64,000 bases of DNA, from positions 116,839 through 180,838 of the IMG/VR virus record IMGVR_UViG_3300024999_000034. The stretch is one strand, 5' to 3'. This document shows positions 18,729-45,339 of the stretch, one piece after another (position 1 is the first letter of the stretch; every line of letters starts with the position of its first letter). The stretch comes from a virus. The notes below the pieces were generated by a model. The model was not told where the DNA came from and did not search any database. It saw nothing but the letters and a program-made list of their open reading frames with translations. The translations under genes were made by a program, and so were the position numbers.

Positions 18729-20357
18729 ATGAAGTCATTCAGTGATTTTAAGAATGAATATTTTGATAATGTAAGTAATAGTCATACATTTGCGATATTT
18801 AACAAAAGCACAGATAAATTTTTACAATATTATCAAATTGTAAAAGATAATGCAAATGGCAAGTATCGTATATTTGTAATTCCCCTATCTTTTATAAGGC
18901 CAGAAGCATTTGATTCTCAAATAGAAGCCGAAGAATGGATAAAACAAAAAGATGTTATTATTTCCAAAAAAGCATTTTTATCATATAGCTTAGAAAAAAT
19001 TGAAGAGTGATACTTTCAAACTTTGATATTATAGGAATTAGGAGGAAACAATCGTGAGAGTTAAATTTAATGATAAAATATATTTATGTACAAAGGTAAC
19101 ACATACTCCAAATAGCAAACTATTGTTATTTACTACTTCTAATGGAATATATACTACTGATATGAAAACATTAGAAAACGCTAATACTTACTATAAAGAC
19201 ATACTGATTAATGGATATTTAGATGTGTCAGATTTTGAATACTGTAATTGATAAAATACTCAGTTGAAAATAGGAGGAACCAAATAAATGAAATTACTAA
19301 AATCTTCTCACTCAAAAACATTCCATTATGATAATGCAGAAGAAAGATTAAATCATATCTCAGAAATGGAATTACAAGGATGGACATGTAGCGGTCAAGT
19401 CAAGGAGTTTACTGGCAATTTGTGGTTTAAAGATGAAATAGAGGATGAAAGTAAATATTATTATGTTGGTAGATTTTATAAAGAGGAGAGATAGGAGAAT
19501 ATTTTGTGAATAAATATATTTGGGAAAAGTCTAATAAAGAAATATCAGAATATAATTCATACTATAGGTGTGACATTATTTTTACAAATGAAGTAATTTA
19601 TAATGGCAAATTGTATTATTGTACACAGGATAATATTATAAATATCACTCCTTTAGATTATGATTGATATTTAATATACTTAACTTCCTAGTCATTATTT
19701 ACATTAAATTTTAATAATTACATTTAATTTAACTCTATATTATTTAAAAATAAATATTTAAAGGAGATTATAATATGTATTATGTTTACACAATTTGTAT
19801 GAAAAACGGTAAAGAATATAAAACTGAAGTCAAGCAAAATCTTAATGAATTAATAAATCAACTTATGCCAAAAGATCCTTATGAAATTAAAATATTTCAT
19901 TGTAATTTATTCAATGGTGAAGGTGAGAGCGTAGCTATAATCGGGAGCGAAGTGTCAAGCATTGAATATCTTGTTACTAAAGAATCAATTTTGGCAAGTA
20001 TGTAAATAATTATTTGACTTTGTTGGTTAGTATATGTTACAATAAATACATAAATAATTATTTAGGAGTGATACACAAATGGCATCAGGAGAGGGAATCA
20101 GAAGTTTTATACATAAGCATTCATTATCTACAAGTTATAAAATAATTCCAGAAGGAGATAGGAAAATTAATTATATTCCAAATATAAAATATGATTGTCC
20201 TGTTTGCGGTGGTCATAATATTGGTACAGTGATAGGTGGGAATAAATATTGTCAAGATTGTTGTATAGAATATGATAATATGGGTGAAATATTCTCTATT
20301 CAATGGAATGGTGAATTAGTGCCTTATTATGTAAATGAATTTATAGATTGTGAATAG
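18729..20357 (+). other. Array of small hypothetical ORFs (18729..19010, 19054..19251, 19288..19494, 19775..20005, 20079..20357 with CxxC pairs)
   Basis: Co-oriented ORFs with AGGAG RBSs. Confidence 0.6.
20014..20043 (+). promoter_or_regulatory. sigmaA-like promoter
   Basis: TTGACT-N18-TACAAT with TGn. Confidence 0.6.
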
Positions 20358-20368
20358 GAGGATATATA

Positions 20369-21046
20369 ATGATTTTTATTACTGGCGATACACATGGAAA
20401 TGTAAAAAGGTTTAATATGGATAATTTTTCAATACAAAAAGAATTAACTAAAGAAGATTATATGATTATTACAGGTGATTTTGGTTTAGTATGGGATAAT
20501 TCAAAAGAAGAAAAATATTGGCTAGACTGGTTAAATAAGAAAAGTTATGTTACTCTTTTTGTTGATGGAAACCACTCGAATCACTCAATATTAGATTCTC
20601 TTCCAGTTTCAATATGGAATGGTGGTAAAGTACATTTTATTAATGATAGCGTTATTCATTTAATGAGAGGTCAGGTTTTTAATATCAATGGCAAAAAGAT
20701 ATTTACATTTGGTGGAGCTGATTCTATTGACAAGCAACACAGAATTGAAGGTAAATCATGGTGGAAAAGAGAAATGCCATCACATGCCGAATATGAAGAT
20801 GGATTAGATAATTTAGAAAAGCATGACTTTAATGTAGATTATGTTGTCTCACACGATTGTTCTACAAGTGTTTTTGAGAAATTAATGGCAGGGTTGTGGG
20901 TTAAGAATTTAACTTCAATTAACAAGTATTTTGAAGTCTTAGAAGATAAATTGAAGTATAAGCAATGGTACTTTGGGCATTATCATGAGGATCGGTGGAT
21001 TGATGAGAAACATAGATTGATTTATCATGATATTGAGCTATTATAA
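20369..21046 (+). CDS. Calcineurin-like metallophosphoesterase (second family)
   Basis: TGDTHG, TGDFG, VDGNH, VSHDC, FGHYH. Confidence 0.9.
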   Translation: MIFITGDTHGNVKRFNMDNFSIQKELTKEDYMIITGDFGLVWDNSKEEKYWLDWLNKKSYVTLFVDGNHSNHSILDSLPVSIWNGGKVHFINDSVIHLMRGQVFNINGKKIFTFGGADSIDKQHRIEGKSWWKREMPSHAEYEDGLDNLEKHDFNVDYVVSHDCSTSVFEKLMAGLWVKNLTSINKYFEVLEDKLKYKQWYFGHYHEDRWIDEKHRLIYHDIELL

Positions 21047-34637: not shown

Positions 34638-36242
34638 TTGGGTAAAAATAAAACTACAGAGCAGTATAGACAAGAGTTAGAAGAATATAATTTAAAATAT
34701 AATACAAAAATAAAGTTAAAGAATGGAGTTGAATATAATGGTGCTAATACTAAAATATTACATATTTGTTCGTGTGGTAAAGAGTGGTTAGTTTCACCTT
34801 CAGGCGTTATAAATAGTAGTTCGAAAACAAGTTGTGGTTTATGTTATACGTTTGCAGAAAAAGGAATCGATAATCTAGGGTATAATTTTTTAGAAAAATA
34901 TTGGGATTATAAAACAAATAACGAATTAGGAATTGATCCTTGGAAAATTAGTTGTAGTTCTGGAAAAGATGTTTATATATTTTGCCAAGAGAAAGATTAT
35001 CATGGAAGTTATAAAGTACGTTGTGTTGATTTTAGTAATGGAAGTAGGTGTGGTTATTGTCAAGGATACTATTTGGTTCATCCTTTAGATAGTTACGGAC
35101 AGTATTTAATTGATTCATTTGGAATAACCGCAATAGAACTGTATTGGGATTATAATATAAACACTGTTGATCCTTGGAAGATTACAAAACAATCAAATAA
35201 GATGGTATATATTAAATGTCAGAGGAAATATTATCATGGAAGTTATGGCATCAAGTGTAATGATTTTGTAAGAGGTGATAGATGCGGATATTGTGGAGGT
35301 AAAAAAGTACATCCATTGGACAGTCTAGGAACACTACATCCAAAATCACTAGAATTATGGTCAAATATAAACAAAAAATCACCATATGAATATATGTCTG
35401 GAAGCGATATGGAAGTTTGGTTTAAATGTGGCAACAAGAGACATGAAGATTACCAAAAAAGAATATATAATGCAGTAAATTGTAATTTTAGATGTCCAGT
35501 ATGTTCTCAAGAGCAAAAAGAATCTGTCATGGCCTCCACACTAAAGCAGGTATTAAGATATGAATACAGTCATACAAAATGGGAATATGACGCAGGATTT
35601 AAAATAGATAATAATATTAGTAGGTATGATATTTATGTTCCAGAATTGAATAACTTATTAATAGAATGCCAAAGTGAATATCACGATGATGAAAAACATA
35701 TTATTAACGATCAACTTAAAAAACAGTTTGCTATTGATAATGGATATGAATTTATAGCAATAGATAAAAGAGATTTTACAATAATAGAAATACTGAAATT
35801 TTTTATACCACATATAGATAAAATCCCTGATTATATACAAATAAATAAAAATACAACAAGAAGCTGGGACATAGAAAACGCTCAAAAACTACTAGATACT
35901 GGTCATACATACATAGATATAGCCAATATATTAGAAACGTCAGCTACAGCAATACGTGCAAGTGTAGGCGATAATGGTTTAATTAAACCAAATAATTATA
36001 TTTTCCAAGGTGCAAATATAGTTTGTTTATCTATGGATAATAATTTAATAAAAACATATAATTCATGTACTTCTGCTGCCAAAGATTTAGGAAAAGCAAA
36101 TGGAACAAGTATTAGTTCATGTTTGACTAAAAAGCCTCGTTCAGATACTGGGAAAATACGTGAAACAGCTTTTGGTTTTAAATGGATGTATCTAGTAGAT
36201 TATGAGAATATGGTCAAAGATCAAAATAATAAACCTCCGTAG
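34638..36242 (+). CDS. Homing-endonuclease-like protein: repeated zinc-ribbon modules, PD-(D/E)xK/Vsr-like nuclease domain, NUMOD1-like C-terminus
   Basis: Repeated W...C..K..H..Y......G.RC.YC units; RYDIYV...LIECQSEYH...DQLKK; IKTYNSCTSAAKDLG...TAFGFKWMY. Confidence 0.7.
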   Translation: MGKNKTTEQYRQELEEYNLKYNTKIKLKNGVEYNGANTKILHICSCGKEWLVSPSGVINSSSKTSCGLCYTFAEKGIDNLGYNFLEKYWDYKTNNELGIDPWKISCSSGKDVYIFCQEKDYHGSYKVRCVDFSNGSRCGYCQGYYLVHPLDSYGQYLIDSFGITAIELYWDYNINTVDPWKITKQSNKMVYIKCQRKYYHGSYGIKCNDFVRGDRCGYCGGKKVHPLDSLGTLHPKSLELWSNINKKSPYEYMSGSDMEVWFKCGNKRHEDYQKRIYNAVNCNFRCPVCSQEQKESVMASTLKQVLRYEYSHTKWEYDAGFKIDNNISRYDIYVPELNNLLIECQSEYHDDEKHIINDQLKKQFAIDNGYEFIAIDKRDFTIIEILKFFIPHIDKIPDYIQINKNTTRSWDIENAQKLLDTGHTYIDIANILETSATAIRASVGDNGLIKPNNYIFQGANIVCLSMDNNLIKTYNSCTSAAKDLGKANGTSISSCLTKKPRSDTGKIRETAFGFKWMYLVDYENMVKDQNNKPP

Positions 36243-36297: not shown

Positions 36298-36996
36298 ATG
36301 GATTTAATCACACTAGCAACAAAAACGACATACAAATTATTCAAAGTAGATGAAGTAATTGACTCATTTGATCAAAAACACTTTAATATTGTTAAGATAA
36401 TAGTAAAAAAATATAGGAATATGGACATTGAAGCAACAAAATCTCAAGTACAACAATTAGCCGAAAACGGAATTAGGAATTTTTGGAGTGAGTTATTTAA
36501 GTATATAATTGTATTATCAATTGCAAGTTATTTTAATATATTTACTCCAACTTTCTTTGTAATGAATGCTTTCTCTGTCCTCAGAGCATTGGCTGGTGGC
36601 GTACATATGTCTACCATAGGAAAATGCTTTGCAATGATGGTTCTATTCTTCTTATCACTAGGATATTTAATTAGTATATTACATATAAATACGTTAGTAT
36701 TAGTCGTAGGAATATCATTGGGGTCTATATGGAGCATATACATAGCTAAAAAATATTCTCCACAGGAAAGACCAGATAAATCAGATAAAGATTGTGATCA
36801 CGGCAATATAAAAAAGTATAAGACAATAAAGTTTATTAAATTCTCGTATATAATTAGTATGATATTAATATTGTTTACTCAAAAATACATAATTGGGATT
36901 AGTATATTTACAGGTGTTTTACTTGAGATGGTAACAATTACACCTAGAGGAACGAGATTTTTTCAATGGATAGATAGTAAGAAGGTGACACTATGA
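36298..36996 (+). CDS. agrB: AgrB-family autoinducing-peptide processing membrane protease
   Basis: LRALAGGVHMSTIGKC with His and Cys 7 apart (catalytic pair), YSPQERP, multiple TM helices, C-terminal TP. Confidence 0.9.
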   Translation: MDLITLATKTTYKLFKVDEVIDSFDQKHFNIVKIIVKKYRNMDIEATKSQVQQLAENGIRNFWSELFKYIIVLSIASYFNIFTPTFFVMNAFSVLRALAGGVHMSTIGKCFAMMVLFFLSLGYLISILHINTLVLVVGISLGSIWSIYIAKKYSPQERPDKSDKDCDHGNIKKYKTIKFIKFSYIISMILILFTQKYIIGISIFTGVLLEMVTITPRGTRFFQWIDSKKVTL

Positions 36997-37619
36997 TCGA
37001 AGTGGTAGTGTTTACATTCGTTTTTGCATGGTTCAATGGTTATAAGTGGAAGGTATTAAATTTGTTTAAGCATTGGAGCATATACCCCATTGCACTTACT
37101 TGTGTTGCTCATATTTATATTATATATCTTATGGTTCATGGTCAATATTGGTTTATGGAATATGCCAAATACATAAAAATTGTATCTATATTACTTTACT
37201 TAGGTTTGATTTGTAAATATAAGTTATTCGACATATCTATCTTTAAGAAAATTAATATTAAAGAGAACCCTATATTAACCCCTTTTACATCTCCTGTTTC
37301 TTTAGGTGTATTATGCATGGGTATAGGATCTGTCTTAAATATTATTGCTATGAAATTTAATGGTTCAAAAATGCCTGTTTTTGCGAGTGTAAGTTTTGGT
37401 ACAGGATATTCAAAAATAGATATGTTTGATAAAATGTTACAGTATAATGACTTTCATGTATTTGGAAACAGTGCTACACATTTGATATTTTTAACCGATT
37501 TCATAGATATTTTTACATCCATTATGAGTATCGGTGATGTATTAACTAGAATATTTGTTGTTTTAGTAATATATTACTCAATAAAAGTATGTAATCATAA
37601 AGTAATAAATAATATTTAG
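36993..37619 (+). CDS. DUF5317-like integral membrane protein, translationally coupled to agrB
   Basis: GSVLNIIAMKFNGSKMPV and LTDFIDIFTSIMSIGDVL motifs; ATGA overlap. Confidence 0.7.
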   Translation: MIEVVVFTFVFAWFNGYKWKVLNLFKHWSIYPIALTCVAHIYIIYLMVHGQYWFMEYAKYIKIVSILLYLGLICKYKLFDISIFKKINIKENPILTPFTSPVSLGVLCMGIGSVLNIIAMKFNGSKMPVFASVSFGTGYSKIDMFDKMLQYNDFHVFGNSATHLIFLTDFIDIFTSIMSIGDVLTRIFVVLVIYYSIKVCNHKVINNI

Positions 37620-37648
37620 TTGACAAACAGTGAAGGGAGGTGTATACT
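37620..37648 (+). promoter_or_regulatory. sigmaA promoter for the membrane-receptor + agrD transcript
   Basis: TTGACA-N17-TATACT. Confidence 0.75.
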
Positions 37649-37687
37649 TATCACATAGCAAAGAAAAGTTTAGAGGAGTAGATTATT

Positions 37688-38476
37688 ATGTTGGAAAATA
37701 TCATTTATTGTGCGTTGAGTTGTATTTTTATCACGATCCCAGAAGACATTTTTCTAATAATATTAACGCTAAGATTTATGGGAAGAAAAGAGATGTTGGA
37801 TTTATACAATATTAAAGAAAATTTAATTTCGATTTTAAAAATTGTTATCCCTTCGGCATTGTCTTTAAATCTTTTAAATTTTATAATAATGACACCAACT
37901 TCAATTAACAAAATAATATCTTATACTATGTTGTATTTGTTATTGGTATACATATTAAAAAAGAAATCTTTTATTGAATATCCAAAATTATATCAAAAAG
38001 CTTTTCTATATTTTATCTTAAGTATATTAGTAATAATAGCTATTGAAATTATTACCTTGCCAATTATATTTAAATTAGTTAATAAAACATATAAAGAAAT
38101 TCAGGTAAATTATTATTTAGTCATAATATGTTCTCTGTCTTCTAGAATTATAAATCTAATAATATTGTTCACTATTTTTATGAAGAAGAATAGTAAATTT
38201 CAAATAAGTATTGGTAATTATATATTTAATAATAAATTTTTCACAAGATTATTGATTGGTGTCACGGCAGGATTGGTTGTATCTGAGGCATACTTTGTCA
38301 AGTTAATTTTGTGGAATAACTTTTTAAATATCATTCCAACAATTTACGAACAATTGTTGTTAGTTATAAGTTTTACTTTTTTAGTACCAAGTTTGATAAT
38401 TTCAATAGTTTATTCTTGTATAAATTATTGTGTTATGATTATTAATAGTGAGAAGCAGACTTTCAGAAATGACTGA
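37688..38476 (+). CDS. Multi-pass membrane protein resembling an AgrC-type sensor domain with no kinase domain (copy 1)
   Basis: About 7 hydrophobic helices over 262 aa, no H-box or HATPase; sits between agrB and agrD. Confidence 0.6.
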   Translation: MLENIIYCALSCIFITIPEDIFLIILTLRFMGRKEMLDLYNIKENLISILKIVIPSALSLNLLNFIIMTPTSINKIISYTMLYLLLVYILKKKSFIEYPKLYQKAFLYFILSILVIIAIEIITLPIIFKLVNKTYKEIQVNYYLVIICSLSSRIINLIILFTIFMKKNSKFQISIGNYIFNNKFFTRLLIGVTAGLVVSEAYFVKLILWNNFLNIIPTIYEQLLLVISFTFLVPSLIISIVYSCINYCVMIINSEKQTFRND

Positions 38477-38515
38477 TCTGATTTTTCAAATACATTATAG
38501 AAGGAGGTGAAAATA

Positions 38516-38623
38516 ATGAAAAAGAATATCGTAATTGGTTTTGTAGCAATCGCTGCTTTTGCAGCAGTAATGTCTTCAATGGTAGTTTGGCATCAATCGG
38601 AAACTCCTAGTTGTATCGCGTAG
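38516..38623 (+). CDS. agrD: AgrD-like cyclic autoinducer propeptide, 35 aa (MKKNIVIGFVAIAAFAAVMSSMVVWHQSETPSCIA), absent from the ORF track
   Basis: AAGGAGGTG RBS; MKK plus hydrophobic leader; ring candidate SMVVW followed by HQSETP, matching the clostridial AgrD tail HQPEEP. Confidence 0.8.
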   Translation: MKKNIVIGFVAIAAFAAVMSSMVVWHQSETPSCIA

Positions 38624-38640
38624 TACATATCCATGATCTA

Positions 38641-38669
38641 AGGAGGGAGTATTTATACTCTCTCCTTTT
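38641..38669 (+). terminator. Intrinsic terminator after agrD
   Basis: AGGAGGGAGTAT/ATACTCTCTCCT hairpin followed by T run. Confidence 0.75.
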
Positions 38670-38697
38670 GAATTATAAAATAATTTTTATAATACTA

Positions 38698-38727
38698 TTG
38701 ACATATTATCCACTGTTGTAGTATAGT
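38698..38727 (+). promoter_or_regulatory. sigmaA promoter for the HTH-MazF gene
   Basis: TTGACA-N18-TATAGT. Confidence 0.65.
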
Positions 38728-38779
38728 AATATAAAGTAAGAAATTACGAAATATTATATTTACAAATTATGAAGGGTGG

Positions 38780-39601
38780 ATGATTAATATGTTTTTCAAT
38801 ACAAAAAAGAGAAATGAGACTGTTAAATCAAATGAGGCAAAGGATTTCAAGAAGCTTGCAAACTTAGTAAAAATAGCCGTTGGAAGCAATACTATTTCAG
38901 AGTTTGCAAACAGATGTGGTATTCCAAATTCAGCTAAAAGTATTGCTATGATTACTCAAGAAAAAATAACTACATACCCAGAAGTCGGTTTGCTTAAAAA
39001 AATTGCTTTGGGTTCTGAATTTCGAGTATCTTTTAATGATTTAAGGATTGCATGTGGTTATGATTTAAATGATACAGGGATTGATCTTAGAGGTGTAAAA
39101 GCTATGAGGGGTTGGATTGCCTTATGTAACTATGGGAACGTTTTAGACTCAGAACAATCTGGAATTAGGCCTTCCTTAATAATTTCCAATAATATTGGGA
39201 ATGAGAGAGGGACTATTTTGATGGCAATTCCTTTATCTAGTAAAATAATGAAAAATACTATGCCGACCCACGTCAGAATTGGCCCCAAAGACTGCGGATT
39301 GGCACAAGAGTCAGAAATTTTAGTTGAGCAGATGCGTGTAGTATCAAAAAGTCGTTTAATGATTGATGGGTTCATTCAACCAATTTGTGAATGTCCTGAA
39401 GACATACTCCGTAAGGTAGAAATAGCCATCATGAAGGAAACTGGTATGGTGAATACTAGAGCCAATGAATCTACAGTAGATAGATTCCTTGATAAACTTA
39501 ATGAATATGTAAATAAAGCAGAAGAAAGTCGTATCAATCACATTCAAAGCAATAATCGCAACACAATTCCACAACAACAGAGAGTAGCATCTTTTGCATG
39601 A
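38780..39601 (+). CDS. XRE-like HTH fused to a MazF/PemK domain
   Basis: N-terminal TISEFANRCGI...PEVGLLKKIA...DLRIACGY; C-terminal SEQSGIRPSLIISN...IPLSS...MPTHV...ILVEQMR. Confidence 0.85.
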   Translation: MINMFFNTKKRNETVKSNEAKDFKKLANLVKIAVGSNTISEFANRCGIPNSAKSIAMITQEKITTYPEVGLLKKIALGSEFRVSFNDLRIACGYDLNDTGIDLRGVKAMRGWIALCNYGNVLDSEQSGIRPSLIISNNIGNERGTILMAIPLSSKIMKNTMPTHVRIGPKDCGLAQESEILVEQMRVVSKSRLMIDGFIQPICECPEDILRKVEIAIMKETGMVNTRANESTVDRFLDKLNEYVNKAEESRINHIQSNNRNTIPQQQRVASFA

Positions 39602-39606
39602 ATATA

Positions 39607-39659
39607 ATATAAATGGTCATTATATGTCCTTCTTATTATAATATAATGACCATTTATAT
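39607..39659. repeat. Perfect 19-bp inverted repeat with a 15-nt loop between the HTH-MazF gene and receptor copy 2
   Basis: ATATAAATGGTCATTATAT ... ATATAATGACCATTTATAT. Confidence 0.85.
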
Positions 39660-39694
39660 ATACCAAAAATAAAAATAAAAAGGAGTACGCCTAT

Positions 39695-40495
39695 ATGCAA
39701 GCAATTACAAATGCCATCCTAAACACCATATTCGTTGGCCTCCCTGAAGAAATGTTCATTGTAATAATCACATTATCACTTCTAAAAATCAATGATCTGC
39801 TAGACATCTTAATGTGGAAACGTAGTCTAACATGGATTATGCTCACAGCATTACCCGTAGCAATAATGGCAAATATCTTCAAATATATTATCATAGTACC
39901 AAAACAAAATTCTATATTGTCAATTATGTTATTTATGATAATTCTTATGCAATACATAGTCATCACCAATAGTTTCAAAGTAAATTTTTCACTAATATTT
40001 AAAACAGCAATCTACACAATCGCAAGCTTTGTAATTGTAGGAATCATTGAATATGCTTACTGTCCACTTCTATTAGCATTATTAGAAAAACCATATAGTT
40101 TTTTCAATGATAATGTAATGTACAATATCCTATGGGCTATTCCAATCAAAATTCTACACTTATGTATTGTTTCCTTAATTCTAGTGAGAAAAAATAGCAA
40201 AGTAAAAATTAATCTGTTTGACTCAATTATTAGAAATAAATTTATTGTTAGTGGTTTGTTGCTAATATTAGCAACCAGAGCATTAGTAGTTAATTATATC
40301 AATAAATTAGTGGAAAATAATAGCATCATGATTCAATTACAATTTATTGATGAATTAATTGCTATTGTTATAATCACATCAATTCCAGTAATATTTGTCA
40401 CATGGTTATTAATGGTAATCAATCATTATTTATGTAAAGAGAAAATGGCTCTGTTGGTTTGTGAAGGAGTTAGTGGAAATGATGACGGTGAGTGA
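39695..40495 (+). CDS. Multi-pass membrane protein, paralog of 37688..38476 (AgrC-like sensor without kinase, copy 2)
   Basis: Shared IF..(I/L)PE(D/E).F, IE....P, K.Y and KNSK..I....I..NKF motifs; similar length. Confidence 0.65.
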   Translation: MQAITNAILNTIFVGLPEEMFIVIITLSLLKINDLLDILMWKRSLTWIMLTALPVAIMANIFKYIIIVPKQNSILSIMLFMIILMQYIVITNSFKVNFSLIFKTAIYTIASFVIVGIIEYAYCPLLLALLEKPYSFFNDNVMYNILWAIPIKILHLCIVSLILVRKNSKVKINLFDSIIRNKFIVSGLLLILATRALVVNYINKLVENNSIMIQLQFIDELIAIVIITSIPVIFVTWLLMVINHYLCKEKMALLVCEGVSGNDDGE

Positions 40496-40535
40496 TAAAT
40501 AAGGAGTGGAAAACGAACATTTCAGAATAATTTGT

Positions 40536-40549
40536 CGAACGTATGTACT
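40536..40549. promoter_or_regulatory. Putative LexA (SOS/Cheo) box
   Basis: CGAACGTATGTACT, one mismatch to GAAC-N4-GTTC, about 20 bp upstream of a -35. Confidence 0.35.
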
Positions 40550-40568
40550 ATTTTTGTTATGATAATCC

Positions 40569-40597
40569 TTGAATAGTGTTTTTATAGATGATATAAT
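40569..40597 (+). promoter_or_regulatory. sigmaA promoter with extended -10
   Basis: TTGAAT-N17-TATAAT with TGn. Confidence 0.7.
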
Positions 40598-40677
40598 ATT
40601 ATCAAGGAGGTATTAAAAGAATCTATAAATTATTTGTAGAAATTACCATAAATTAAAATTAAAGGAGAAGTGAGTAT

Positions 40678-41031
40678 ATGAATTTAGAAACTAACAACGA
40701 GGAATATTTATGGGTAATCAAAGATCAAGATGGTAACTTTGCTCACAGAAACAGTATTGGCAAGTCTGGTAAGAATACCTGCATATACATATCTTTTAGA
40801 ACATTCTCTCCTGAGTGCAAGGGTTATATAAGTAAAGAAAGTGCTGAATTAGCCTTGCAAGAATTAAACAGAAGAAAATCTATCATGAGATTACCAAATA
40901 CATTCAATTTAGAATATAATATTTTAAGTAAGATGACTAAACTACATAGGGAATTTCAAGGAGAGAATATGGTCATATATGAAAAAACACATTCAAATAT
41001 ATTAAACTGTCCTGTATTAGAAGCAATCTAG
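40678..41031 (+). CDS. Hypothetical protein in its own transcription unit between the agr module and the yopQ/mrpR-like operon
   Basis: AAGGAG RBS, own promoter and terminator. Confidence 0.6.
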   Translation: MNLETNNEEYLWVIKDQDGNFAHRNSIGKSGKNTCIYISFRTFSPECKGYISKESAELALQELNRRKSIMRLPNTFNLEYNILSKMTKLHREFQGENMVIYEKTHSNILNCPVLEAI

Positions 41032-41062
41032 ATTATTGTGTGCTTGATAGAAGAAATATAAA

Positions 41063-41095
41063 GAGCCACACTGGTCGCATCGATAAGTGTGGCTC
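41063..41095 (+). terminator. Hairpin, probable terminator
   Basis: GAGCCACACT-N13-AGTGTGGCTC. Confidence 0.6.
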
Positions 41096-41117
41096 ATATA
41101 AAAATAAGTATAATTTC

Positions 41118-41146
41118 TTGACATTAGAGTAATAATTAGATATACT
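41118..41146 (+). promoter_or_regulatory. sigmaA promoter of the DndB-like / recombinase-fold / XRE operon
   Basis: TTGACA-N17-TATACT. Confidence 0.75.
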
Positions 41147-41166
41147 GATATTAATATTATTTTAAT

Positions 41167-42552
41167 GTGAAGGAGAGATATTTAATGCTTAAAGAAAAAT
41201 CAGTTGAGTTAATGCAAGAATTAAATCCATTGATCGTTAAATATTCTAGTAATGACAAGGTAAGAAAAATAATTTTAAATGAGTTTTCCAAAAGGAATAT
41301 GAGTGGTCGGTTGGCACTATCTATTTTAAACGAGAAAAGAGTATTATCAACATTAGATATCGATGAAGGGAAAGACTTGATATTATTATTTGTTTTTACT
41401 AGTGCAATGTACAATGCATTGACATTTAAAGAAGCAGATGATAAAGAACCTTTGGGAGAAATAGAAGAGTCATTTAAAATAACTCTCGAAAACTATTTTA
41501 CTGAAATTGAGATTGAAAGTCTATTAAACCACACATTTGAAAAAAAAGTTGATGAAAAAGATGAGGCTATTGTTTTTCCAAAAATGAATTTGATTGCTCC
41601 TGGATTTTATTCTGGGTATATGTCTGGAAAACATTTTGCTGAATTAGATGCTGGAAATGAATTCATCTATAATTTTAAAACCCAGCGTGATCCAATTATT
41701 AATGTATCTGGAATGAAAGAAATACATTTAAATAAGAAAAACGCAAAAGAAATTAGAGATGGTTTGCTTTCAGGCGATCAATTCCCAACTACTATAGTGG
41801 TAAATGTTCTTCGAGATGGATCAGACGAAATAATCTACAACGAAAAAAATGGAGACTTGACTATTGTTTCAGGAACTAAAAACCTTGTTGACGGAATGCA
41901 TAGAAAAGTGGGTAATAGCTTAGCCCTTGCTCTTAATCCAGATTTGCAATTTAATTGGTTGTTAGTTGTGATAAACTATAGCGAGGTTAGAGCGCAAAAA
42001 TATATGGTTGAAATTAACAAGCAACAAAAAATGAAGCAGGAACATGTTGATAACATGGATACTTCTAATCTTGGAAACATTGTTGTAGACAACATTAAAG
42101 ATATTGACAACGCTGAATTCTCTGGGCATATTAAAGACAGCGATAAAGAACTAGAACATGGTGGTATGGTAAAAAAATCAACATTAGCAACTAGTATAGA
42201 AGAGTGTTACAAGGATAAACTAACTAATAAAATTGAAGCAAAAAAGATAGCAAAGCATATTGCTAATGTTGTAGATTATGTTATAGGATTACACGCAGAA
42301 GAGTTTATAGAGCATTCTGAAGCTACTAAGAAAGAAAGTTATATCAATCATAAGAATATGTTTGCAGGATATGTTGCCTTATCTGAAAGATTATATGAAG
42401 TAAAGGATTGGGAAGATTTATTAGAAGAAATTCTTAATCAAATTGATTTTAGTGTTAAAAATTCTTTCTGGAAAGATATTGGAATATCAGATTCAGATAT
42501 GAAAAAGTCTACCAGAAACAATTTATATAAATTCTTTCAGAAATTAGTTTAA
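41167..42552 (+). CDS. DndB/ParB-like (DGQHR-type) protein, SPbeta YopQ-like
   Basis: FPTTIVVNV and LVDGMHR motif; position ahead of a recombinase-fold gene. Confidence 0.6.
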   Translation: MKERYLMLKEKSVELMQELNPLIVKYSSNDKVRKIILNEFSKRNMSGRLALSILNEKRVLSTLDIDEGKDLILLFVFTSAMYNALTFKEADDKEPLGEIEESFKITLENYFTEIEIESLLNHTFEKKVDEKDEAIVFPKMNLIAPGFYSGYMSGKHFAELDAGNEFIYNFKTQRDPIINVSGMKEIHLNKKNAKEIRDGLLSGDQFPTTIVVNVLRDGSDEIIYNEKNGDLTIVSGTKNLVDGMHRKVGNSLALALNPDLQFNWLLVVINYSEVRAQKYMVEINKQQKMKQEHVDNMDTSNLGNIVVDNIKDIDNAEFSGHIKDSDKELEHGGMVKKSTLATSIEECYKDKLTNKIEAKKIAKHIANVVDYVIGLHAEEFIEHSEATKKESYINHKNMFAGYVALSERLYEVKDWEDLLEEILNQIDFSVKNSFWKDIGISDSDMKKSTRNNLYKFFQKLV

Positions 42553-42586
42553 TTTTTCTAATATTTATTTATAAGGGGTGTTTTAA

Positions 42587-43633
42587 TTGGTTATTAATGA
42601 AGTTAATAATGGGTTGCAAAATGAAGAGGTGGTATTTGAGGTTGATTCAGAAGTGAAAAAGGAATTTCTAGAAAAACAATTAAAGTCAACTAGAAGTTTC
42701 TACACTTATGTTCTCAAAAGAGCAGATGAATTTGAATCACAACTTGGGAAAAAGATTTACGATTTTAATATTGAAGATCGCGATGAGATGTTGACTGTTC
42801 AGTTTAAGAATAAGAATAAATGGACGTTTCAATCTGCATTATCTCCTTTAAAAACTTATGTTGACTTCTGTATTTCTAAGAATTTAGTTAGACACAATGA
42901 AAACAGGTTTATGACTATTCTTCCGTCAGATTATGATGATTATGTTAGTGATCAAGCAAAAAACAGTTCTTATATCCCTTTATCAGAATCCAGAGAATTT
43001 CAAAAAAGATTAGCAAATGATCAAGATAAATTAATCATTGAATTATCTAGTTTAGGGGTTAGGGGAAGAACTGAAAAAGGCAATACACTTGAAGAGTTTG
43101 TAAATCTCAAAGTAAAAGATATTAAGTGGAAAGATAAGGAATTATGGCTCACTAAAAACAATGGGGAGCAAAGGTATATCAATGTTGATGATTATACTTT
43201 AGATTTACTAAAACGAGTTATTAACCAAACTTTCTATGTATCTAACAATGGATTAAAGACTAAAAAGAATGATTTAGGAGAATTCGAAAAGACTAATAGA
43301 GGCAGGGCTATAAGTCCGACTGAGTATGTTTTTAGAGTTCCAGGAAAGAATAGAAAAGGCAAAGTTGCTTATCAATTTTTTACTAGCAGAATTCAACGGA
43401 TGCAAAGTTGGTTAGAAGCTCCGTATTTAAATAGTTCTAATTTATATTTTTCTGCAATTTTAGATTATGCAAAAAACATGTTAGATGAGAAAAAAGCAAA
43501 AGGAGAAAAAGCAGAATTAACTAGAGAAGAATATATTCGAATTAATGAAAGATTTGAATTTGGTGAAAACGGAGAAAAATATGTGTTTAAGACTAGAGAT
43601 TTAGTTAAAATGCACTTTGGTAACGGAGAGTAA
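42587..43633 (+). CDS. Tyrosine-recombinase-fold protein with a degenerate active site, SPbeta YopR/MrpR-like master repressor candidate
   Basis: SAM-like N-domain (LSPLKTYVDFC), LGVRG...EFVNLKVKDI box I; the HxxR box is replaced by SNLYFS; no obvious C-terminal catalytic Tyr box. Confidence 0.65.
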   Translation: MVINEVNNGLQNEEVVFEVDSEVKKEFLEKQLKSTRSFYTYVLKRADEFESQLGKKIYDFNIEDRDEMLTVQFKNKNKWTFQSALSPLKTYVDFCISKNLVRHNENRFMTILPSDYDDYVSDQAKNSSYIPLSESREFQKRLANDQDKLIIELSSLGVRGRTEKGNTLEEFVNLKVKDIKWKDKELWLTKNNGEQRYINVDDYTLDLLKRVINQTFYVSNNGLKTKKNDLGEFEKTNRGRAISPTEYVFRVPGKNRKGKVAYQFFTSRIQRMQSWLEAPYLNSSNLYFSAILDYAKNMLDEKKAKGEKAELTREEYIRINERFEFGENGEKYVFKTRDLVKMHFGNGE

Positions 43634-43638
43634 ATATT

Positions 43639-44043
43639 ATGAAAAATACACTAGCTGAGATGTGGAAAAAATACAATTTACTTCTCTCTTTTAAAAATGA
43701 AATGAATAAGAGAGGATATCCTTCAAAGAGTTTGTATAGTATTGAAACACAAATGAGTGTTTTGATGCTTTTGATTGAAATTGAAAGTATAAATGTTTTA
43801 GAAGTCTTGCTAAAAGGAAAAACTTATTTCAGATTATTAAAGAAGATTAACAGGGGATTTGAGTATTTATATGAAATTGTAGAATCTCCAGAGGACTGGG
43901 TGTTGAACAAAATTGAAAATGATGTTGATGCGTGGATTGATTCAAATGTATTAATTTTTACATGCAAAAGTTCTACTGCTGTATTTAGTAAGATATCACG
44001 CAAAAGTGATGGAGCAAAATATATTGATGGAAAATTTCAATAA
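43639..44043 (+). CDS. Hypothetical protein
   Basis: 134-aa ORF in the same operon. Confidence 0.55.
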   Translation: MKNTLAEMWKKYNLLLSFKNEMNKRGYPSKSLYSIETQMSVLMLLIEIESINVLEVLLKGKTYFRLLKKINRGFEYLYEIVESPEDWVLNKIENDVDAWIDSNVLIFTCKSSTAVFSKISRKSDGAKYIDGKFQ

Positions 44044-44046
44044 GAG

Positions 44047-44463
44047 GTGTGCTTTATGAACGTAGGAGAAAAAATTTGTCTATACAAAGAAAGATTAAAT
44101 TTTAGAGATTATCAAGAATTTGGCAGGGCAGTTGGTATCAGTGGCAATTGGATAAATGAAACATCTAAGAAATCAGAGATTAAACAAATCAACGACTTAG
44201 GTTATTTAGTTAAATTGTGTGGATTTTTAGGAATTACGATAGATGAATTTTTAAGAGACGATGTAATTGAAACCGATGAATCAATTGAACCTAAAATTAT
44301 TGATGTAAATTCGGAAGATATTGGTATTTTGCTCAATAATATGATATTATTACTAGGAAGAGAGGGTATAAAAATAGATGGGGCATTAATGAATGATAAG
44401 AGTAAAGAAATTTGTATAGATAGTCTTGCGGTAGTAAGAACACTAGTCAAACAACATTTGTAA
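44047..44463 (+). CDS. XRE-family HTH transcriptional regulator
   Basis: YQEFGRAVGISGNWIN...LVKLCGFLGITIDEFL. Confidence 0.75.
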   Translation: MCFMNVGEKICLYKERLNFRDYQEFGRAVGISGNWINETSKKSEIKQINDLGYLVKLCGFLGITIDEFLRDDVIETDESIEPKIIDVNSEDIGILLNNMILLLGREGIKIDGALMNDKSKEICIDSLAVVRTLVKQHL

Positions 44464-44469
44464 TGGAGG

Positions 44470-45339
44470 TTGATAATTATGATTAGAAAGAATTACAGGT
44501 CGGTAGACACATATGAAATGGATGATATTGAAGTATACTCATTAGTTAAAAATGGCAGTCTTAGGGCGTTTCCTTCAGGCTTTTGGGAAGGCGTGATAGG
44601 TCTTCAAACTGCTAAGAAAATTCTAAAATATGTTTTTGAGAATCTTCTAAATTGGTCTATTGAGGATATAAAAGCAAAATCAACTAGAGAGATGTTTGAA
44701 GAATATAAATTAGTTGGAATGGTTAGCACTGCATTTGATGGTAGTATGTATATTGCTATTGGAGAAACTTATCCTGAACTTAAAGAATGGGCAGATGAAT
44801 TATATCATACAAATGAACATGCTGATTTTGTCTATAGAAAATATTCAGATGATGAATTAATTAGTATTCTCCAAGAAAAAGCAAAAGAGTTAAAGAGAAT
44901 TCCAAAAGGTGTTGATATGAAAACGCCTAGTAGTGGAATTTATAATCGGAGATTTGGTTCATGGGAAAAATCTTTAATGAAAGCAGGTATAATTGAAGAT
45001 ATTTATAAAAATGTTGATTTTGGAAAGAATTCTAAGGAATCTGTCATATCAAATTTAAAAGAATTATTTGCAAGCAAAGAAAGAGTATTGGACAAGAAAG
45101 AAATACTTGCTATTTATCCAGAAGGATTGATTAAAGAATACTTTGGAACTTATAATAATCTTGAAAAAGTTATTGTAGGTGAGTATACTAAAAGGGATCT
45201 TATCAAAATATTAAAAAAGAAGAAAGAAAAATTAGGCAGAACTCCAAGTAATAAAGATATGAAGTTTCCAATGGCTATTGTGTTCATAGATAAATTTGGG
45301 AGCTGGCAGGAGGCGATTGACAAATTGGAGAAAACTTAA
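44470..45339 (+). CDS. DUF4046-like domain plus homing-endonuclease-associated repeats
   Basis: FPSGFW...LNWSIEDI; YSDDELISILQEKAKELKRIP...RRFGSW and ...LGRTPS...KFGSW repeats. Confidence 0.6.
   Translation: MIIMIRKNYRSVDTYEMDDIEVYSLVKNGSLRAFPSGFWEGVIGLQTAKKILKYVFENLLNWSIEDIKAKSTREMFEEYKLVGMVSTAFDGSMYIAIGETYPELKEWADELYHTNEHADFVYRKYSDDELISILQEKAKELKRIPKGVDMKTPSSGIYNRRFGSWEKSLMKAGIIEDIYKNVDFGKNSKESVISNLKELFASKERVLDKKEILAIYPEGLIKEYFGTYNNLEKVIVGEYTKRDLIKILKKKKEKLGRTPSNKDMKFPMAIVFIDKFGSWQEAIDKLEKT

Follow-up and report, generated by a model that had tools for sequence, protein, structure and literature searches.

To our knowledge, arbitrium and the other RRNPP-type systems are the only examples of phage-to-phage peptide communication shown so far, and all of them employ imported linear peptides and cytoplasmic receptors. 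In phage SPbeta, aimR-aimP are located upstream of the yopM-yopR (sro) operon (PMC8612738), and in phi3T the arbitrium output AimX inactivates host MazF, whose activity favours lysogeny at high peptide levels (PMC10769878). A different type of signalling genes, agr3 (agrD-agrB-agrC), is carried by the Clostridioides difficile phage phiCDHM1, the sole published agr-carrying phage found in the literature searched (PMC3901668). Here, we describe an agr-type gene cassette in a 64,000-nucleotide stretch of viral DNA, referred to as the window, which represents the final 64 kb (positions 116,839 to 180,838) of the IMG/VR virus record IMGVR_UViG_3300024999_000034. The cassette comprises agrB, agrD, a DUF5317 gene, two genes for paralogous membrane proteins (TM1 and TM2) and a gene for a fusion of an XRE-type helix-turn-helix (HTH) domain with MazF. 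As an earlier annotation made without database searches (the sequence-only reading) had proposed, these genes occupy the slot of aimR-aimP-aimX in SPbeta. We found no published description of such a cassette in the literature searched. Our preferred reading, to which we assign slightly less than an even chance, is that of a phage-borne Agr-type cyclic-peptide cassette wired to an SPbeta-type lysis-lysogeny switch.

The record is linear, has a length of 180,838 bp (CheckV completeness ~85%) and a GC content of 28%, and carries almost all genes on a single strand. It encodes a portal protein as well as a 941-amino-acid (aa) homologue of the single-subunit RNA polymerase YonO from SPbeta (match to SPBc2 yonO with E 4e-15), which shares 29% identity with its counterpart in Clostridium phage c-st across 97% of its length. 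All open reading frames (ORFs) called by the sequence-only reading were present on the + strand where it had placed them (Table 1), and profile, structure and alignment searches bore out its assignment of agrB, DUF5317, two paralogous membrane proteins, agrD, HTH-MazF, a DndB-like protein and a degenerate recombinase. That reading had staked its interpretation on the last two, starting at 41167 and 42587, being relatives of YopQ and YopR; tblastn, blastp, PHROGs and Pfam searches identified them as homologues of YopQ and YopR/MrpR, with mrpR directly 3′ of yopQ. Since homologues of YonO, YopQ and YopR occur together, the phage is SPbeta-like as judged from its gene content. The 348-aa MrpR homologue aligned with SPbeta YopR over the full length (blastp E 4e-7). 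When compared with the recombinase positions tabulated by Kohm et al. (PMC10516654), the box II HxxR motif appeared as N..YF in the alignment, i.e., His and Arg were lost, while the Tyr was kept; the box I Arg was kept as well, unlike in SPbeta. The term 'degenerate recombinase' was thus appropriate, and the protein is a candidate master repressor with, as judged from this alignment, a tyrosine-recombinase fold and a degenerate active site. The nearest bacterial relatives of the cassette genes were found in Clostridia, and related phages came from groundwater and other metagenomes. Neither megablast searches with the locus nor tblastn searches with AgrB yielded a match among GenBank phages.

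The production part of the cassette resembles staphylococcal and clostridial agrBDCA systems in its AgrB with a catalytic His/Cys pair and in its AgrD, which has a conserved tail behind a ring of five residues with Cys or Ser. In ten phage AgrB orthologues, residues R96, G100, G101, H103, K109 and C110 were invariant, and H103/C110 correspond by alignment to the H-x6-C catalytic pair. The true start of agrD is the ATG at 38516, which lies 3′ of a GGAGG ribosome-binding site; the match of the propeptide to its NCBIfam model was narrow (Table 1). AgrD orthologues from more than 15 related loci all exhibited a Lys-rich start, a hydrophobic leader and a Ser or Cys exactly five residues N-terminal to a conserved tail, [HNYF]Q[PS]x(T/E)PxC. 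The four residues following the Ser/Cys were highly variable, and at least 15 ring variants were detected. Rings of the Ser type were SMVVW (window phage), SAIIW, SAFLW, SWVIW, SWVGF, SYFVT, SYFIS, SWAFS, SWLFA, SWLFT and SWFWL; those of the Cys type were CFAAW, CLAAW, CFAVW and CRFWF. The alternation of Cys and Ser between conserved flanks fixes the ring register, and we thus predict the ring of the window phage to be SMVVW, closed by Ser as a lactone. At the level of sequence, a variable five-residue ring with conserved flanks and Cys/Ser alternation is the signature of AgrD, while a ring nucleophile that is Ser or Cys depending on the phage is new. In the chromosomal AgrD of Clostridium cylindrosporum, the ring reads CLWYS and the tail YQPEEPKC, which places the phage peptides in a clostridial AgrD type. 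In analogy to arbitrium, the cassette encodes a small, putatively secreted peptide that varies between related phages. However, the arbitrium peptide is a linear hexapeptide imported by Opp, whereas the peptide found here is of the ring-forming, AgrB-processed type; it is the only peptide gene in the slot, and no AimP-type linear peptide with a signal sequence was seen there.

The membrane proteins TM1 and TM2 share 32% identity (E 1e-19) and matched no family in Pfam, NCBIfam or PHROGs. An AlphaFold2 model of TM1 displayed seven long helices with a mean predicted local distance difference test (pLDDT) value of 91.5. A phmmer search of 1.8 billion representative sequences returned only 50 relatives of TM1/TM2 (76–324 aa, most of them ~260–290 aa), none of which contained a kinase, and profile searches of a large protein collection revealed no kinase-fused relatives either. 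Matches to G-protein-coupled receptors in a PDB sequence profile search were rejected as chance hits. The link to known proteins is instead provided by a family of ~155-aa clostridial membrane proteins, which we named S155. At a chromosomal locus of C. cylindrosporum (L028, contig C25; such labels denote related phage or bacterial loci used for comparison), genes for DUF5317, a 155-aa membrane protein, AgrB and AgrD follow each other in a row. S155 was present in 31 of 300 sampled Clostridia genomes; in the loci fetched from this sample (L086–L115 set), it was located immediately 5′ of agrB at least 17 times and 3′ of DUF5317 at least eight times. The C. perfringens operon CPE1563-CPE1562-agrB-agrD (PMC2706048) probably has the layout of L028 as well, with CPE1563 and CPE1562 as putative DUF5317 and S155 proteins. 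Two further S155 matches were the first 150 residues of longer proteins (452 and 453 aa) with SPOB_a and HATPase_c_5 domains, that is, AgrC-type kinases by domain content.

Profile-profile comparison by hhalign connected the phage TM family to S155 (98%, E 2e-13, 149 columns), and S155 in turn to the two 452/453-aa kinases (99.2%, E 5e-20, 149 columns) and to 16 other clostridial HATPase_c_5 kinases (95.5%, E 1.6e-8, 135 columns), while controls for the S155 comparisons (reversed alignments and the unrelated AgrB and DUF5317 membrane families) scored 15 or less. Direct comparison of the phage TM family with the kinase N-termini gave 83–93% with scores of 44–58, as opposed to 28 or less for reversed, unrelated and block-shuffled controls. 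Through S155, helices 1–5 of TM1/TM2 are thus homologous, on profile evidence, to the sensor domain of AgrC-type kinases. The sequence-only reading had called TM1 a 'kinase-less receptor'; this label is justified as a statement of ancestry but not of function, since S155 regularly occurs in bacterial operons for peptide production and a receptor function does not follow from the homology. Compared to S155, the phage proteins are ~100 aa longer, possess two extra helices and a conserved cytoplasmic tail and are often duplicated. Foldseek and VIA-align searches of the TM1 model against the PDB gave no meaningful match (best Z 8.7, a soluble helical protein), which says nothing against the sensor homology because the structures searched evidently do not include an AgrC sensor. 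In the ESM Atlas, TM1 matched only a cluster that carries no name and is mostly viral (TM-score 0.61), and feature matches of 0.77 to ~160-aa Bacillota proteins fit the S155 family. Comparison of the outer and inner halves of TM1 showed no clear pattern of extra variability at the outer face. Two side observations concern this family. An S155-like gene lies directly 5′ of a gene for a short HATPase_c_5 kinase (317-aa frame) in genome G033 (contig C3, ~19500–20810), a pair that looks like an AgrC split into sensor and kinase polypeptides. Furthermore, the C. cylindrosporum chromosome harbours three tandem ~255-aa paralogues of the long phage-type membrane protein (L016:8992-11619), with no agrB or MazF gene within 10 kb.

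The DUF5317 gene, the start of which overlaps the agrB stop, is found immediately 5′ of TM1 in the phage cassettes in which it was detected, just as it precedes S155-agrB in clostridial chromosomes. In one DUF5317 protein fused to ~400 extra residues, a second domain was sought and none was recognised. The phage locus hence resembles clostridial four-gene agr operons in that DUF5317, a sensor-like membrane protein, AgrB and an AgrD with a tail of the YQPEEPKC type stand together. It differs in that the bacterial membrane protein measures only ~155 aa and that MazF and an adjoining phage repressor are absent from the bacterial operons.

In contrast to agrBDCA, the cassette encodes neither a DHp nor an ATPase domain nor an AgrA/LytTR regulator. 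The sequence-only reading had noted the missing kinase and regulator for the window; this now extends to the entire 181-kb record (~85% complete), in which searches for HATPase_c and HATPase_c_5, with positive controls, as well as for LytTR gave no match. The sensor homologue is a stand-alone protein, extended by two helices and a short cytoplasmic tail, and the proposed output is an XRE-HTH/MazF fusion. By gene content, the cassette is therefore best described as an agr system in the production arm only. The agr3 genes of phiCDHM1 likewise lack a response regulator (PMC3901668). There, however, AgrC has a kinase ATPase domain and no recognised receptor domain, so that the cassette in the window represents the reverse case of a sensor without a kinase; moreover, the agr genes of phiCDHM1, a myovirus, lie elsewhere than at an SPbeta-type repressor operon. 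A search with SPbeta AimR found nothing in the 181-kb record, although a very distant tetratricopeptide repeat (TPR) receptor was not profile-searched. Given that neither an AimR-type receptor (SPbeta AimR as the query) nor an AimP-type peptide was found, the cassette is, by comparison of the parts, arbitrium-like in position and logic but not a member of the arbitrium family.

The putative effector of the cassette, the 273-aa fusion, matched MazF of Bacillus subtilis, Staphylococcus aureus and Bacillus anthracis in a PDB profile search (E 5e-30), and by sequence its MazF domain belongs to the EndoA type of B. subtilis. In an AlphaFold2 model (pLDDT 79), a five-helix domain (residues 19–96) matched XRE HTH domains with Z 7–8.8 and residues 106–225 matched MazF with Z 19, so that the predicted fold agrees with the HTH-MazF fusion proposed from the sequence. 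The C-terminal part consists of a long acidic helix and a disordered tail with a conserved hydrophobic end. Across the aligned HTH-MazF orthologues, this ending resembles a tag for degradation by proteases. The window's fusion retains the catalytic Arg and Ser/Thr in G-x-R-P and P-L-S-S motifs, the residues of which we take to have the same roles as in MazF of Escherichia coli and B. subtilis. A second, stand-alone MazF shares 33% identity with the MazF domain of the fusion and represents the conserved first gene of the cassette, found at the same position in nearly all related loci. General family scans detected no antitoxin-family ORF beside either MazF gene; no dedicated MazE profile search was made. 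The involvement of MazF is a further parallel to arbitrium (PMC8612738, PMC10769878), except that here the phage supplies its own MazF, in fusion with an HTH domain.

About 20 distinct and diverged loci of metagenomic phages carry the cassette, and wherever the flanking sequence suffices, it is positioned directly 5′ of YopQ-MrpR. The genes are thus conserved together, as the sequence-only reading had supposed, and they occur in three orders. In order A, agrB-DUF5317-TM1-agrD is followed by HTH-MazF-TM2; in order B, DUF5317-TM1-agrD is followed by HTH-MazF-agrB(-TM2), which puts HTH-MazF between agrD and agrB and hence within the cassette; order C corresponds to order A without TM2. The core DUF5317-TM1-agrD was invariant with the exception of L121, in which DUF5317 was not detected, and HTH-MazF was present in every phage cassette inspected. 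TM2 is optional, being absent from L008, L019, L116, L117, L120, L121 and L130.

Comparison of individual loci revealed that cassette and repressor are exchanged separately. Locus L003 is closely related to the window in AgrB (90% identity), DUF5317 (87%), HTH-MazF (83%) and TM1 (62%), but only distantly in YopQ (24%) and MrpR (29%). Conversely, L116 shares MrpR (88%), the 134-aa ORF (99%) and the XRE-like protein (93%) with the window, whereas its cassette is of gene order B and 28–39% identical. These identity patterns imply that the modules recombine independently, as do the signal modules of arbitrium, which are swapped independently of the repressor. Within the cassette, TM1 was the most variable protein among close relatives (62% versus 83–90% for AgrB, DUF5317 and HTH-MazF). 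TM2 was even less similar (53%), but TM2 is exchanged independently: the TM2 of the window is 89% identical to those of L013 and L023, while the other cassette genes of these loci show 29–40% identity. The membrane-protein tree placed every TM2 in one tight clade (support 100/100) nested among the TM1s of order B, whereas the TM1s were far more divergent and their clades tracked the AgrD ring groups. A hypervariable peptide paired with a hypervariable sensor-domain protein is reminiscent of agr specificity groups, and by these comparisons a peptide and a partner that both change quickly and move between phages as one unit constitute a pherotype pattern.

Phages without agr genes help to separate the parts. 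Clostridium phage c-st, which also has a YonO homologue, encodes a MazF with a 90-aa C-terminal extension (CST027), CST028, YopQ (CST029) and YopR (CST030), i.e., an extended MazF directly 5′ of the YopQ/YopR homologues as in the window. Unlike the window, c-st lacks AgrB, AgrD, DUF5317 and the membrane protein, and its MazF has no N-terminal HTH domain. Similarly, the 173-kb phage L123, with an MrpR 38% identical to that of the window, has no agr genes and shows the order integrase, extended MazF, 199-aa protein, methyltransferase, YopQ-MrpR. Since both phages keep MazF without agr, we conclude that MazF belongs to the YopQ/YopR-type switch of clostridial phages and that agr is an added input. 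The 199-aa protein (L123:6260-6859) exhibited a sub-threshold TPR match (E 7e-4) and could, by its position and this match, be another signal receptor in the same slot.

On our preferred reading, AgrB would trim the AgrD tail and close the five-residue ring, a lactone of SMVVW in this phage and a Cys-closed ring in sister phages, with DUF5317 and TM1 accompanying peptide processing as their homologues may do in clostridial agrBD operons. The peptide would build up outside the cell as infections proceed and report the number of carrier or infected cells of the same pherotype. The kinase-less homologues of the AgrC sensor would bind it extracellularly, TM1 as the cognate, peptide-specific protein and TM2 as a conserved second one; a membrane protein sensing outside the cell would set the system apart from arbitrium. 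As neither a kinase nor a response regulator was found, we propose that the TM proteins contact the XRE-HTH/MazF fusion directly and thereby hand on the signal, which might reach the stand-alone MazF by way of the fusion. By binding DNA, cleaving RNA or both, the fusion would finally bias the YopQ-MrpR repressor operon toward lysogeny, a direction proposed by analogy with phi3T, in which host MazF is active at high arbitrium peptide. Peptide production, the identity of the sensor, the step from the TM proteins to MazF and the direction of the effect on lysogeny are what we infer in this scheme. As for the sequence-only reading, which had interpreted the locus as a communication system convergent with arbitrium, the identity of the parts, their position and their conservation hold, while convergence follows, as an interpretation, from position and pherotype-like variation.

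Several findings weigh against this reading. The homology to the sensor domain is limited to helices 1–5, and PDB searches with the TM1 model yielded no structural match that would back a receptor. S155 and DUF5317 are normal constituents of MazF-free agrBD operons on clostridial chromosomes, and the TM proteins could, by this analogy, equally be processing or export partners rather than receptors. TM2 does not co-vary with AgrD (89% identity across phages with SMVVW and SYFVT rings) and is missing from many loci. Contact between TM1 and HTH-MazF is weakly supported by modelling: complex prediction gave a score of 0.33 (best control 0.00), with at least 90% of contacts agreeing between runs and a partner pLDDT of at least 71. 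Of 80 solved complexes, 58 attained the mark set for such predictions, as did two of 110 mismatched pairs; scores of 0.60 or less comprised seven of the 80 solved complexes and both of the passing mismatches, so that passes at the level of 0.33 are wrong more often than right unless the guess was likely beforehand. In one subclade of the fusion, His replaces the catalytic Arg, and the RNase activity may therefore be dispensable. All loci stem from related phages, and the adjacency to MrpR is thus partly inherited; given a record that is ~85% complete, a kinase could sit in the missing part. Finally, expression, peptide production and an effect on lysogeny are predictions for a candidate system.

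The main competing explanation of the same observations is a captured host production operon, an alternative that we consider rather unlikely. In this case, the TM proteins would be processing or export partners, host kinases of the VirS or AgrC type would sense the peptide, and MazF would belong independently to the lysogeny module; the phage would manipulate host quorum sensing (sporulation, metabolism or defence) or use the host pathway as its receiver. The four-gene layout in clostridial chromosomes, with the numbers of S155 neighbours given above, is in line with this idea, and so are the MazF-YopQ-YopR arrangements without agr in c-st and L123. In addition, the C. perfringens agr operon contains two co-transcribed hypothetical genes upstream and its signal is read elsewhere (PMC2706048), and the phiCDHM1 agr genes, devoid of a regulator, were proposed to act through the host (PMC3901668). 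Yet a peptide that imitates a host signal would be expected to diverge little from it, whereas at least 15 rings were found in closely related phages, and cassettes were swapped between near-identical repressor backgrounds. Mere export partners would also not account for the additional ~100 aa, two helices, conserved tail and frequent duplication of the phage TM proteins, and an independent MazF is at variance with the embedding of HTH-MazF between agrD and agrB in order B and with its presence in each cassette inspected.

It is also conceivable, albeit improbable, that the cassette is a toxin module under peptide control and serves to exclude superinfecting phages, abort infection or maintain the prophage. 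Both MazF RNases would then be the effectors, the fused XRE domain and the C-terminal tail would act as a built-in antitoxin, and the peptide and TM proteins would tune the toxin by lysogen density. XRE-HTH domains are common as antitoxins, and the acidic C-terminal helix with its conserved hydrophobic end would suit such a role. Further points in favour are that both paralogous MazF proteins have intact catalytic positions, that no gene resembling MazE was seen in the vicinity and that PHROGs classes phage MazF as 'moron, auxiliary metabolic gene and host takeover'. On the other hand, the cassette stands strictly beside YopQ-MrpR in all loci, and MazF holds its position even where agr is absent. 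The toxin model also overlaps with our preferred reading, given that MazF itself is part of the lysis-lysogeny circuit in phi3T (PMC10769878). An antimicrobial or interference peptide directed at competitors (e.g., by blocking the agr of other strains), with the TM proteins serving in immunity or export, would agree with the highly variable rings and the well-known cross-inhibition between autoinducing peptide variants in staphylococci, but is highly improbable in view of TM proteins that are homologous to sensor domains and not to transporters, the lack of ABC transporter or immunity-type genes in the cassette according to family scans, and a DNA-binding MazF and a link to the repressor operon that it would leave unexplained.

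Table 1 Features of the cassette and its surroundings (positions refer to the window)
Feature	Position	Strand	Evidence and remarks
Stand-alone MazF/PemK, 127 aa	34225–34608	+	Pfam PemK_toxin, E 4.2e-18
Homing-endonuclease-like gene, 534 aa	34638–36242	+	Three DUF4379 zinc fingers, NUMOD1
AgrB peptidase, 232 aa	36298–36996	+	Pfam PF04647, E 2.8e-24
DUF5317 membrane protein, 208 aa	36993–37619	+	PF17248, E 8.9e-16
Promoter-like site TTGACA-17-TATACT before TM1	37620–37648	+	11/12 matches, intergenic; consensus match only
TM1, 7-helix membrane protein, 262 aa	37688–38476	+	Kinase-less AgrC-type sensor-domain homologue by profile comparison; hypervariable
AgrD propeptide, 35 aa	38516–38623	+	TIGR04223, 19.1 bits vs. 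cut-off 19
Hairpin and T-run 3′ of agrD, intrinsic-terminator-like	38640–38672	+	Read from sequence; not picked up by simple signal scan
Promoter-like site TTGACA-18-TATAGT before HTH-MazF	38698–38727	+	11/12 matches, intergenic
XRE-HTH/MazF fusion, 273 aa	38780–39601	+	PemK, E 5e-21 at residues 110–218; likely start ATG 38789
Perfect 17-bp inverted repeat, HTH-MazF/TM2 gap	39609–39657	+	Read from sequence
TM2, TM1 paralogue, 266 aa	39695–40495	+	Tight conserved clade; optional in relatives
Promoter-like site before 117-aa ORF	40569–40597		
117-aa ORF	40678–41031	+	No family match (Pfam, PHROGs)
Promoter-like site before yopQ	41118–41146		
YopQ homologue, DndB/ParB-like, 461 aa	41167–42552	+	DndB, E 2.7e-10; phrog_5732, E 2e-59; SPBc2 yopQ tblastn, E 6e-16
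MrpR/YopR homologue, 348 aa	42587–43633	+	MrpR_N_CB (PF22822), 50.4 bits vs. cut-off 27; phrog_5830, E 1e-47
134-aa ORF and 138-aa XRE-like ORF	43639–44463	+	XRE-like ORF: weak phrog_8 match

Signals and neighbouring genes complete the picture of the locus (Table 1). The best four promoter-like sites, each with 11/12 matches, were all intergenic and immediately 5′ of TM1, HTH-MazF, yopQ and a 3D-domain gene, while the total number of promoter-like sites showed no excess over shuffled sequences. The inverted repeat that separates HTH-MazF from TM2 might serve as an operator; alternatively, it might fold into an RNA hairpin and thereby determine how much of one product is made relative to the other. 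Homologues of the 117-aa ORF were found in relatives either between the cassette and yopQ or 3′ of mrpR. The 134-aa and XRE-like ORFs followed MrpR in L017, L021, L022, L116, L117, L120 and L123 and are, by this distribution, co-conserved with the MrpR type of the window. The 534-aa homing-endonuclease-like gene is an insertion, missing from its place 3′ of MazF in L020, L022 and L120, and probably does not belong to the system. Genes of the homing-endonuclease type (DUF4379/NUMOD1, HNH-repeat and HNH) were numerous in general and occurred at 34638–36242 and 44470–45339 of the window and also in L060–L065. A degenerate palindrome (TCCCAnAAA, ~8 nt, TTTnTGGGA) recurred at gene boundaries (window 6167–33060 and elsewhere in the genome) and was mildly enriched genome-wide, with 12 copies compared to 2–6 in shuffles; the agr/MrpR locus contained no copy. 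A k-mer count search for a repeated operator similar to SPBRE revealed no dominant motif.

Beyond this locus, the stand-alone AgrC-sensor proteins might be a signalling device that, once the cyclic peptide is bound extracellularly, controls a cytoplasmic effector by contact and without phosphorylation. In phages, the effector would be the XRE-HTH/MazF fusion, setting the lysis-lysogeny switch within a second phage communication system of many pherotypes, while the ~155-aa bacterial relatives would serve as receptors or co-receptors of orphan clostridial agrBD loci. We regard this generalisation as unlikely. What is new here, on the level of sequence and profile comparison, is the homology to the sensor domain, the bacterial four-gene operon, the split into a variable TM1 and a conserved TM2 and the Ser/Cys alternation. 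The sensor homology gives a previously unnamed seven-helix protein a testable role. It also draws attention to the S155 proteins of clostridial agrBD operons, which are widespread and unstudied, and may bear on orphan loci that lack known receptors. If our preferred reading is true, phages would have arrived at a second solution to communication, built from agr parts, sensing outside the cell, free of a kinase and equipped with a MazF of its own, and the link between MazF and lysogeny known from phi3T would be generalised. The many ring variants would then provide a natural set for the study of kin discrimination among phages.

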